Assembly (NCBI GenBank): GCA_965368975.1
Contig: CBDUPA010000008.1
Location: 192,001 to 256,000 of the forward strand
Source: an uncultured bacterium
GTDB taxonomy: Bacteria > Acidobacteriota > Thermoanaerobaculia > Multivoradales > JAHZIX01
Reading direction: 5' to 3'
Length of the DNA stretch: 64,000 nucleotides
The stretch's first letter is position 1. The number at the start of each line of letters is the position of its first letter. The translations under genes were made by a program, and so were the position numbers. This document shows, in pieces, positions 37,820 through 40,800 of this stretch. The notes beneath the pieces are model-generated. The model saw only the letters and a list, made by a program, of their open reading frames with translations, made no database searches and had not been told where the DNA came from.

Positions 37820-40800
37820 TCAGTCTTCCAGCCGCGCCTCGACCTCATCGTCTTCGAGGTCTTCGATCTCCGCCAGCAAGGCTTCCAGATCCCCGTCCTC
37901 GGTGCTGTGCACCATCTGTGCCTGCAGTGCCTCGACGCGCACGGCCATCTCGGCGATCGTGGGGCCTTCGAAGAGCGCACGCATCGGCACTTCGACGCCG
38001 AAGCGGTCGCGGATGGCGGCGATGAGGCGGCCGGCGAGGAGGGAGTGGCCGCCGAGGTCGAAGAAGTCGTCGTGGACGCTGAGGTTCTGACACTCCAGGA
38101 GGTCCTGCCACAGCTCGGCGAGTGTGCGTTCGGTGTCGTTCCTGGGAGCGATGTGCTGCGGGGCCTCGGCCGCTTCTGCCGCTTCGAGTTCGGCGAGCAC
38201 AGCGGCGCGGTCGGGAAGGGCGTTGTTGAGCTGGGGGATGGTGTCGACCTGACGGATCTCGAGATCGCGCAGCTCTGCGGGCAGTTCTGCCGATCCACTG
38301 TCGACCGCCTCTGAGGCGAAGGGCTCGCGCAGCCACTTCTGGAGCACCAGCGGGTCGAGGTGCACCTTCATGCCAGCGAAGGGGGGTGGGGCCGGGGCGA
38401 CGCAGGCCAGGTGCTGGACGCTGCCGTCGCGGCGACCACGTGAGACGACGGCGGCGGCCTGGACGGCGGGGTGAGCACACAGGCGGGCTTCCAGCTCGGT
38501 GGGTTCGAGCCAGAAGGATGCCGTGGCCTCCAGAGTTGCGGGCCGCAGCGGCACCTGGTGCAGATCAGTGGCCGGATCGGCGGTGACGGCCCGCAGCAAG
38601 ACCTCGAAGCGCTGCAGCAACTCGATCATGCGAGGGGCGTCGAAGAGCGCGGCGTCGTAGTGCAGTTGCAGGTCGAGGCCGGCCGCTTCGCCCTGCTCGG
38701 TCTCCAGTTCGAGGGCGTAGAAATTGAGGTCGAACTTGGAGTCGGGCGCGCCGCTGTCGAGCATCTCGAAGCGGACGCCGGGCAGCTCCATGGGCGACGG
38801 CGGCAGGTTGATCAGGTTGAAGAAGACCTGGAACAACGGTGTGTGGGTCAGCGAGCGCTCGGGATTGAGCTCTTCGACCAGCTTCTCGAACGGGATGTCC
38901 TGGTGCGCGTAGGCGCCGAGAACGCGTTCACGCGTGTCCGCCAACAGCCGGCGGAAGGTGAGCGCTTCCTCGCCCGGACGCAGGTCGGCACGCAGCACCA
39001 GGGAGTTGATGAAGAAGCCGATCAGCGCTTCCGTCTCCTGCTGGGTACGACCGGCGATCGGCGAACCGATGGTGACGTCGAGCTGACCGGACAGGCGACT
39101 GAGCAGCAGCTGCAAGGCGGCCAGGAGCACCATGAAGAGGGTGGTGTCGGTGGCGCGGGCGAGCTGATGCAGGCTTCGTTGCAAGCCAGCGTCGAGACGC
39201 AGGTGCCTGCGCCCCGCGGCTTGGTGGGTGAGCGCTTCCAGGCGCCCGCGTGGATGGTCGGTGGGCAGCAGCAGGCGCGCTGGGGCAGCGTCGAGTTGTG
39301 CGCGCCACCAATCGAGCTTGGTCTGCAGCGTCTCGCCTTGGAGATAGGTGCGTTGCCACACGGCGTAGTCGCCGTATTGCACTGCTAGAGGCTGCAGTGC
39401 TTGAGGTTGCAGTTGCAGGGGCGGCAGGGCGCTGGCGCGATAGAGGGCCGTCAGCTCGCGGTAGAAGACGCCCAACGACCAGCCGTCAGACGCGATGTGG
39501 TGGAAGCTGACCAGCAGCGCGTGCTCGTCGCGCGCGGCGCGCAACAAGAGCAGGCGTAGGACGGGGCTGGTCTCGCCCAGGTGACGTGGCCGGGGCGGGC
39601 AGGTGTCGAGGGCGAACGGACGGCGGGCCTCGGCTTCGCTCAGACGGTTCTGCTCGCTGCCGCGCTGCTCAGGTGCGAGCCGACTCAGGTCGACGACCGG
39701 CAAGGGGATTGCCGCGGGTATGGAGTACGCAACCTGGACGGCTGCCTCGCCGGTGCCCTGGTAGACGCTGCGCAGGATCTCGTGGCGCTGCACGATGCTG
39801 ACCGCGGCGCTGGCCAACTGAGCGACGTCGAGGTGGCCGTGCAAGGCGAACGCACCGGGCAGGTGATACGCGGTGCCGGCGGCGTCGATTTGCTCCAGGA
39901 ACCACAGGCGGCGCTGGCCGAAGGAGAGCGGCAGGCCGTGCGGGTAGGCGTCGCGGTCGACGGGCTGCAACGGAGTGCCGAGCTGTTGAGTCTGCTGGGA
40001 GTCGGCAGTGCTCTCCAGCTCACCGCGAAGCGCGTCCGCCAGCTGGGCGACGGTGGCGTTCTCGAACAGGGTGCGCAGCGCCAGCTCGACGCCGAGTTCC
40101 TGGCGCACCCTCGACACGACCTGCGTGGCGCGCAGCGAATGGCCGCCGAGGTCGAAGAAGTCGTCGTGGATGCCCAGGCTGGCGGCCGGCCGGTGCAGCA
40201 CTTCGGCCCACACCGTGGTGAGGGTGGCTTCGAGGTCGTCGCGTGGTGCCGCGTCGGTGTCGGTGAGAGGGCTGCTGTCCGCCGTGTCCGGCAGGGGCAG
40301 GGCGCGGGTGTCGAGCTTGCCGTTGACGGTCAATGGCAGGGCGTCGAGGTGGAGGAAGACGCTGGGTACCAGGTGCTCGGGCAGGCGTTCGGCCAGCCAG
40401 ATGCGCAGGTCGTCGACGCTAGGTGCCGGTGCCGACTCCAGTGCCGGAGCCGACTCCAGTGCCGGTGCCGACTCCAGTGCCGGTGCCGACGGGCCCAAGC
40501 CTTGCTCGGGCACCACATAAGCTACCAGCTGTAGGTCGACGCGGCGGCCTTCTTCGGCGGCTTGAAGGTCGATGGGGCGGGCGAGGACGGCAGCCTGGGC
40601 CAGCTCTGGATGACCTGCGAGCACCACCGCCACCTCGTCCGGCTCGACGCGGAAGCCACGGATCTTGACCTGGTGGTCGATACGACCGACGAACTCGATC
40701 GCCCCGTCGCCACGCCGGCGTACCAGGTCGCCGCTGCGGTAGAGGCGGGCTCCAGCAGGCGCATAGGCGACCGAGCCGGCGAGCGGATGGGGCACGAAGA

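Follow-up and report, generated by a model that had tools for sequence, protein, structure and literature searches.

Subunit-terminal modules that keep only the C-terminal subdomain of an adenylation domain in a nonribosomal peptide synthetase cluster of an uncultured acidobacterium

The 64,000-nucleotide stretch analysed here (the window; positions 192,001 to 256,000 of contig CBDUPA010000008.1, called C8 below, from an uncultured member of the Acidobacteriota) has a GC content of 63–70% and carries two co-directional nonribosomal peptide synthetase (NRPS) genes, both on the minus strand. Their products, P1 (P0001) and P2 (P0002), close in the same way: a condensation (C) domain is followed by a remnant of about 125 residues that resembles the C-terminal subdomain (A_sub) of an adenylation (A) domain, by a thiolation (T) domain and by an acidic tail, and the A core is absent. 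The A_sub-only remnant is denoted A*. P4, a 3109-residue NRPS encoded on contig C47, closes with another such module, whose remnant begins at an identical boundary (DRWPEP). The HHxxxDG motif of the C domain is intact in all three modules (HHIASDG in P1 and P4, HHIAFDG in P2), as is the GGHSL motif that bears the phosphopantetheinyl Ser. All four features of the published A* module type are therefore present, namely a C domain with HHxxxDG, no A core, an A_sub fold and a T domain with its Ser. As described for glidonin and kutzneride (PMC10587159), the C-A*-T layout is not new, and these precedents reduce the novelty of the arrangement. Tentatively, and with less than even confidence, the modules are read here as working elongation modules that depend on loading in trans; the likeliest donor is the terminal A domain of P3, the NRPS encoded upstream of P2, and A* would serve as a structural partner of the T domain.

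By motif scan, P1 contains five C, four A and five T domains, and P2 three C, two A and three T domains. Hidden Markov models (HMMs) trained on the domains of this genome resolve P1 as C-A-T four times followed by C-X-T, and P2 as C-A-T twice followed by C-X-T. A Pfam run over the final 710 residues of each protein returned Condensation (E 2.1e-83 for P1, 2e-57 for P2) and PP-binding (E 1.1e-17 and 6e-15), and in neither stretch any match to the AMP-binding core at E up to 1. Motifs A3, A5, A7 and A8 were not found after the last C domain by motif scan, and the A-core HMM had no match there. The original prediction that both proteins lack the A core after the last C domain, and keep an A_sub-like piece and an intact T domain (GGHSL), is thus borne out by motif scan, genome-derived HMMs and Pfam, and the remnants (Table 1) lie close to the coordinates then proposed. 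A further expectation, that AMP-binding_C would be detected without AMP-binding, holds for the missing core; AMP-binding_C itself stays below threshold, at 15.7 bits in P1 and 13.6 bits in P2 against a cut-off of 24.5.

The extent of the deletion is defined by alignment with P3, whose last module is a complete C-A-T module (Pfam AMP-binding E 5e-38, AMP-binding_C E 8e-12). It is in frame, starts just past the C domain and ends halfway through motif A8, so that RGFRVEP of P3 corresponds to SFWLEP in P1 and GGWLEP in P2. Downstream of the boundary, Trp replaces Arg (WxEP) in all three A* copies. In an alignment of 29 A_sub-T segments the A10 Lys is kept by none of the three remnants (Leu in P1, Val in P2, Arg in P4) and by 25 of the 26 full A domains; its absence from NNALPDR of P1 and SRGVVDR of P2 had been correctly anticipated. 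Motif A9 (LPxYMVP) is also degenerate in A*. The PPPFxGMxVxLD segment had been taken for an insert absent from normal A domains, but in the same alignment it occupies the usual A_sub variable loop at ordinary length and is present, as PPPYEGMTIELD, in the full A domain of P3. An assembly artefact, in which the A core collapsed in a draft of 59 contigs with about 229 similar A domains and a cluster broken between C18 and C8, deserves almost no credence: three divergent copies on two contigs, with A* only about 25–42% identical to one another, are all in frame at the same boundary, and all carry changes beyond it, both the Trp for Arg in WxEP and the loss of the A10 Lys.

Some further features of these alignments may be recorded here. 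The single full A domain without the A10 Lys is in the last module of a 6479-residue NRPS (C16:49152-49739), where A10 reads GHG-VDL. The LPxP motif usual after A10 at the A-T linker is missing throughout the P3/A* family, the intact P3 A domain included (alignment columns about 150–190), and at its position in the A* model a helix is predicted (residues 113–127, AlphaFold2). The A* of P4 contains an in-frame tandem repeat, VVPIESA three times (L022, about 12440-12510). Within the NRPS genes of the window, in-frame tandem repeats with periods of 9, 12, 15 and 18 occur at 40423-40490, 45048-45117, 59465-59527, 60181-60256 and 61249-61309; the encoded peptide repeats include ASEM five times, SAPALE three times and (N/E)SRPE five times. 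The three tandem repeats that were placed all fall in variable loops of A or A_sub domains.

P3 shows the intact form of the module. Its last C domain is 62% identical to that of P1 and 54% to that of P2, its A_sub bears HPAVQAAAVV and an intact A10 (SGKLDR) together with the PPPFxGMxVxLD motif, and its T domain and acidic tail align throughout with those of P1 and P2. When the remnants were searched against the genome with tblastn, the P3 A_sub was the best non-self match or level with the other remnant (E 5e-17 for A* of P1; 6.5e-22 with 42% identity for A* of P2). An HMM of the remnants scores the P3 A_sub at 76.0 bits and the other 165 A_sub-T segments of the genome at no more than 36.8. 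NCBIfam models of whole NRPSs (MxcG, SolG) align their own A_sub-T stretch to residues 479–701 of the P1 fragment. The family comprises the terminal modules of five proteins, P1, P2, P3, P4 and C23a (a 4647-residue NRPS on contig C23), two of which, P3 and C23a, keep a full Lys2-like A domain. These two domains, P3-A3 and C23a-A4, are 39% identical and, among the A cores longer than 250 residues (229 A domains being detected in all), are the only ones with the Lys2-like motifs YGATETPQ and GHDPLLRDL. The top NCBIfam model for P3-A3 is TIGR03443, with a score under its cut-off.

The C-domain tree has the topology (P4,(C23a,(P3,P2,P1))), with support of 98, 96 and 97 in the Shimodaira–Hasegawa-like approximate likelihood ratio test; the A_sub+T tree, with the remnants numbered by protein, is (C23a,(A*4,P3,(A*1,A*2))), with support of 94, 93 and 85. 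These relationships indicate that the A* modules descend from a family of subunit-terminal modules whose ancestor consisted of a C domain, a Lys2-like A domain, a T domain and an acidic tail, as P3 still does, and that the PPPFxGMxVxLD motif of A* was inherited from a P3-type A domain. The common deletion point most simply reflects shared ancestry, and the trees neither establish nor reject one single deletion event. The original prediction had read the identical boundary and the seemingly new motif as signs of selection; descent from one module family explains both, and they give no argument for independent selection. Natural recombination is described as targeting the A core while preserving A_sub and the A_sub-T interface (PMC8097286), a habit that offers a general reason why loss of an A core leaves A_sub behind.

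A model of the A*, T domain and tail of P1, predicted with AlphaFold2 from 29 aligned rows, has a mean predicted local distance difference test score of 90.8, with 10-residue block means of 75–97 over the remnant; the model leans on genuine A_sub domains, since these were in its alignment. Foldseek comparison with the PDB aligns 190–207 columns to the A_sub and peptidyl carrier protein (PCP) of PvdL, DhbF, LgrA, SrfA-C, AB3403 and EntF (E 1e-12 to 1e-9), with PvdL, DhbF, LgrA and SrfA-C matching best (E 1e-12 to 1e-10), and about 110 columns to the C-terminal domains of ANL ligases. The prediction supports retention of the A_sub-PCP fold by A*.

Nonsynonymous and synonymous divergence (dN and dS) was estimated among the paralogues by the method of Nei and Gojobori. 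Because dS is saturated (0.7–2.6, twice undefined), the ratio of the two (omega) is unreliable and dN is used in relative terms only. On this scale dN is 0.33–0.59 for the C domain, 0.29–0.46 for the T domain, 0.42–0.84 for the N-terminal half of A* and 0.80–1.53 for the C-terminal half that contains A9 and A10. Between last modules, A* is 0.34–0.48 identical, compared with 0.44–0.62 for C and 0.48–0.57 for T; in the penultimate modules, which have working-type A domains, A_sub is 0.44–0.66 identical, equal to or above C (0.42–0.60) and T (0.45–0.66). In the A-less modules, C and T are conserved as much as in the working paralogous modules. Constraint on A* is relaxed, not absent, and its catalytic half is close to free drift. 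Neutral divergence had been named as an outcome that would speak against a retained role, and it is approached by the C-terminal half (omega 0.56–0.98 at saturated dS) and not by the N-terminal half, where dN is lower. Better evidence for constraint is provided by the open frame and the confidently predicted fold after divergence to saturated dS, together with the intact catalytic motifs of C and T. The frame, the predicted fold and the N-terminal half of A* persist, A9 and A10 do not, and the C and T domains on either side look fully functional.

These figures also bear on the view that the A* module is inactive or skipped and its remnant slowly decaying, which is distinctly unlikely. Such decay would agree with A* being the least conserved part of the module, with the loss of A9, A10 and its Lys, with the omega of the C-terminal half and with the tandem repeat in A* of P4. 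It agrees poorly with HHxxxDG and GGHSL intact in every copy, with C and T domains no less conserved than their working counterparts, and with a frame that stays open in all three copies despite a dS of 1 or more and a fold that is still confidently predicted. Moreover, even if it were skipped, the module would need to hand the chain on to its own tail.

An A* module has no A core of its own, so its T domain must be aminoacylated in trans, and the original idea of trans loading of an A-less module is a reasonable one. The modules are read as working because their C and T domains have kept intact, conserved motifs and the tails show conservation as well. In the mechanism proposed, the C domain would condense the upstream peptide onto an aminoacyl group held by the T domain of the A* module, and the product would then move on, by way of the acidic tail, to the following subunit, whose head and C domain would receive it. 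The aminoacyl group would most likely be donated by the terminal A domain of P3. This domain is the best candidate because it is a paralogue of the deleted domain that has kept its full length and is the only one of its type in the cluster, because its neighbouring C and T domains cluster with those of the A* modules, and because no A-domain match was found on C8 outside the three NRPS genes or near the cluster on C18. A*, with A9 and A10 degenerate and the Lys lost, would be non-catalytic; it would be kept as the native structural partner of T, the two forming an A_sub-T unit, and might in addition be an adaptor for the A domain acting in trans. A search for stand-alone A or A-T genes upstream of the window had been suggested; scanning all open reading frames (ORFs) of at least 200 residues with the genome-derived HMMs revealed none for the cluster, the A domains of C8 being confined to the three NRPS genes and the only other match on C18 lying about 86 kb upstream of the cluster.

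Known systems supply separate parts of this logic. In kutzneride biosynthesis, a non-functional A* precedes the T domain of KtzH and is stated to be critical for loading in trans by KtzN (PMC10587159), an arrangement like that proposed for the modules studied here; however, the kutzneride cluster encodes a stand-alone A domain, whereas here neither C8 nor the part of C18 adjoining the cluster yielded one and the candidate donor is embedded. The A-less CmnI of capreomycin biosynthesis is loaded in trans by CmnA-A1, which is embedded in another subunit (PMC12400406), and CmnI and the viomycin counterpart VioI thus resemble the logic proposed here. A matching-type A domain in another subunit is likewise present in this cluster, in the form of the P3 terminal A domain. 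Unlike the A* modules, CmnI is described with no A_sub remnant, binding being mediated by an extended N-terminal region of its T domain. The WS9326A pathway also has an A-less elongation module served by A domains in trans, but in Cal19 that module is described as just a C-PCP didomain; it works with separate proteins that contain the A domains, and the aminoacyl group is carried across by a type II thioesterase (PMC7539972; see also PMC8748450). A* is not mentioned in a review of A domains (PMC11355689) or in one of type II thioesterases (PMC4147253).

Loading could instead come from within the same protein, with the A domain of the preceding module charging two T domains and the same hydrophobic residue being incorporated twice. 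That A domain is physically nearest to the A-less T domain, and thalassospiramide reportedly provides an example of a single A domain that serves several carriers. The partial specificity codes of P1-A4 and P3-A2 are identical (FDAATYELW, LHWGGE, VYGPTENTTF) and that of P2-A2 is close; the codes allow a rough comparison only, with one position missing for several domains, and no substrate was assigned from them. The matching codes indicate that the last two modules were duplicated as a block. HMWP2 of yersiniabactin synthesis is named as a case in which one A domain serves several carriers (PMC7539972). Against loading in cis, the penultimate A domain of P4 has a different partial code, and the A* modules have C domains that fall in a group whose acceptor comes from a Lys2-like A domain, not from a Val-like one. 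On balance, this alternative is unlikely, while keeping a real share of the probability.

The acidic tail DLxxLLxEIExLxDDEVxxRL ends P1, P2, P3 and P4, and the head KDLYxRIAxLTPEQRALL begins P1, P2 and P4. From their sequences, tails and heads are putative docking elements; the sole structural hint is the Foldseek alignment of the T domain and part of the tail of the P1 model to PaxA T1-CDD (7b2b), at rank 43. The P2 tail is followed, after 8 nucleotides, by the P1 gene. None of the 17 matches to the thioesterase (TE) family PF00975 in the genome lies on C8 or C47. The A* modules are therefore the last modules of subunits and not of the assembly line, and the description "terminal module" fits them in the first sense only.

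In glidonin biosynthesis, module 13 of GdnB from Schlegelella brevitalea is organised as C13-A*-T13-TE, in which the A* has lost the A core and only A_sub is left; C13 releases the chain with free putrescine as acceptor, and the protein is described as dependent on the A*-T didomain for its stability (PMC10587159). By analogy, the C domain of the A* modules might take a free amine, for example a polyamine, and release the chain, with A*-T only stabilising the protein. GdnB module 13, a biochemically dissected module of this kind whose C13 uses putrescine directly (PMC10587159), shares with the modules described here a C domain, a partial A domain reduced to A_sub and unable to activate an amino acid, and a T domain. 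The absence of a TE domain from C8 and C47 would suit release of this type, as would a spermidine-synthase-like gene at 23269-24831 of the window, though this lies 13 kb away in an unrelated-looking operon. Nevertheless, such a role is quite improbable. Judged by description, glidonin module 13 ends its assembly line with a double TE, whereas here the module closes a subunit and precedes a docking-like acidic tail, and three copies occur with an intact sister module in the same cluster. P1, with a matching head and C domain, follows directly on P2, an order that suggests hand-over and not release. The last modules of P3 and C23a have working-looking A domains, which implies that C domains of this family normally accept a T-bound amino acid, and T ranks with the most strongly conserved parts.

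Several observations weigh against the preferred reading of working modules loaded in trans by P3. A* diverges faster than the flanking C and T domains and than functional A_sub domains, and the high dN of its A9/A10 half would also fit a mere spacer or slow decay. In the best A_sub+T tree the three A* form one group with a support of 29, and the C-domain and A_sub+T trees disagree on P4, which points to recombination or more than one event. The penultimate A domains of P1, P2 and P3 share one partial code, and loading in cis would fit equally well. The P3 A core has its own tethered A_sub, which a foreign A* cannot simply replace. The characterised glidonin A* module acts, as described, through a free amine acceptor. 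The comparison, including the earlier question of whether close homologues carry a full A domain at this position, is built on paralogues of one genome, no orthologous cluster having been found in the genomes and libraries searched, and that the T domains are acylated, and by which A domain, is something we infer from sequence relationships.

A more far-reaching version of trans loading by P3 may be considered, which is speculative and somewhat unlikely. One embedded Lys2-like A domain, that of P3, would serve four T domains on four subunits, its own and those of the A* modules of P2, P1 and P4, and each T domain would keep a private, Lys-less A_sub as a handle for the shared A core. If true, this would amount to a design with a shared A core and private A_sub domains that places the same residue at every subunit junction, in an assembly line joined by near-identical, possibly interchangeable, docking tails and heads.

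The genome (7.13 Mb, 59 contigs) contains 229 A, 226 C and 235 T domains in 99 ORFs according to the genome-derived HMMs, an extraordinary NRPS load with single ORFs of up to 14804, 13272 and 12957 residues; it has only a single detected MbtH gene (on C24) and about 10 TE domains embedded in NRPSs. The same HMMs find exactly three C-A*-T modules and four plain C-T modules. The latter, which have no A_sub remnant, are on C2 (about 443620-445590), C3, C7 (about 47286-49169) and C16 (about 52641-54539), with a C-to-T gap of 61–79 residues in the three that were measured. A-less modules of several kinds thus exist side by side here.

Beyond the genome, a profile of the junction between the C-domain end and A* was searched against 1.84 billion protein representatives for a close relative, with 5402 matches at E of 0.001 or less, none at 1e-30 or less and a best score of 119.5 bits; the genome's own paralogues score 158–213 bits with a similar query, and by this measure the library contains no close relative. 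Eight library matches that seemed to span the junction proved to be ordinary C-A linkers with a full A core. Across 40 related genomes, among the 150 matches listed of 953, the span from C-domain end to T is found only in the three copies of this genome, and the listed matches from other genomes begin at query residue 75 or later. A pattern scan of genome contigs gave at least four weak loci, with 31–49% identity over the best segment, among at least 599 pattern matches. In a set of 150 large NRPSs with 644 T domains, scanned with the genome-derived HMMs, two contain C-A_sub-T modules and 13 plain C-T modules are present. The two are P0033, an NRPS of Ktedonobacter robiniae (WP_201373067.1) with an internal C-A_sub-T module, and P0130, a protein from a JGI metagenome with a terminal one. 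Both have lost the A10 Lys, like A*, but differ in their boundaries, keeping the RGYRI strand of A8, and in their A_sub families, and these differences indicate independent origin. The C-A_sub-T layout recurs rarely and independently.

The features of the two genes are collected in Table 1. The full C-A-T module of P3 runs on past the end of the window (C8:255489-264413). The end of contig C18 and the reverse-complemented C8 end share an exact overlap of 49 nucleotides (C18:149832-149998; beyond window position 64000), and the C18 side supplies the P3 head, first C domain and start of the first A domain; P3 was therefore split by the assembly, and the cluster continues on C18, where a further NRPS of 3461 residues with a basic tail lies upstream of P3. 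The last 118 nucleotides of C18 differ from C8, with a GC content that is lower by eye, and may be a chimeric contig end. Downstream of P1 is a convergent Ser/Thr kinase gene. On another contig, C1:416007-423881 (minus strand) encodes a C-A-T-C-A-T-TE NRPS whose head is nearly identical to that of P1, with 19 matching residues in a row; this protein might be the partner that takes over from the acidic tail of P1 or P4 and terminates the chain. The genes at 23269-27354 and 27296-37789 of the window appear unrelated to the NRPS cluster. Neighbouring products are spermidine-synthase-like with DUF350 and DUF4178 partners, patatin-like, Wzy_C, an S9/DPP-IV peptidase, an AstE/AspA family member and a Ser/Thr kinase with Lcl_C.

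Table 1. Features of the NRPS genes in the window (window coordinates; A*, A_sub-only remnant)
Feature	Position	Strand	Basis
NRPS P1 (P0001), 5431 aa: docking-like head, C-A-T four times, C-A*-T, acidic tail	37820..54115	-	ORF list, translation, motif scan, genome-derived HMMs
Acidic C-terminal tail of P1, DLEALLAEIEDLEDDEVEARLED, putative docking element	37823..37918	-	conserved in P1, P2, P3 and P4
T domain of the P1 A-less module, GGHSL intact	37919..38140	-	Pfam PP-binding; genome-derived T HMM, 121 bits
A* of P1, residues 5201-5325, starting at WLEP (RVEP, end of A8, in P3)	38141..38515	-	AMP-binding_C below threshold, tblastn, AlphaFold2, Foldseek
Degenerate A10 of P1, NNALPDR, Lys to Leu	38207..38227	-	29-row alignment
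Junction left in P1 by loss of the C-A linker and A core (A1 to mid-A8)	38516..38590	-	three-way alignment with the full P3 module
Last C domain of P1, residues 4723-5175, HHIASDG intact	38591..39949	-	Pfam; genome-derived C HMM, 598 bits
N-terminal head of P1, MKVKDLYKRIASLTPEQRALL..., putative docking element	54026..54115	-	head family common to 7 NRPS ORFs of the genome
NRPS P2 (P0002), 3102 aa: head, C-A-T twice, C-A*-T, tail	54124..63432	-	ORF list, translation, motif scan, genome-derived HMMs
T domain (GGHSL) and acidic tail of P2	54127..54489	-	Pfam, alignment, genome-derived HMM
A* of P2, residues 2854-2981	54490..54873	-	AMP-binding_C below threshold, tblastn, genome-derived X HMM, 180 bits
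Degenerate A10 of P2, SRGVVDR, Lys to Val	54586..54606	-	29-row alignment
Last C domain of P2, residues 2365-2830, HHIAFDG	54943..56340	-	Pfam, motif scan, genome-derived HMM
N-terminal head of P2, MSTKNLQDRLASLTPAQRAIL...	63343..63432	-	head comparison
3' end of P3: end of intact A_sub (SGKLDR), T domain, acidic tail	63489..64000	-	Pfam, alignment

A* of this kind is called rare, with glidonin and kutzneride KtzH named as the two characterised cases (PMC10587159), and these reportedly work differently, the one structurally beside an amine-capturing C domain and the other as an adaptor for loading in trans. The locus described here belongs to the same rare, known kind and is an unusually convenient test case, a natural experiment in which three A* copies and two intact sister modules occur in one genome. 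It shows which parts of A_sub stay under constraint once catalysis is gone, namely the N-terminal half and the fold, and it provides a concrete candidate for an embedded A domain working in trans. Genome-mining tools would miss these module positions in product prediction, and for NRPS engineering by swapping or deleting A cores the retained A_sub-T unit is of interest.

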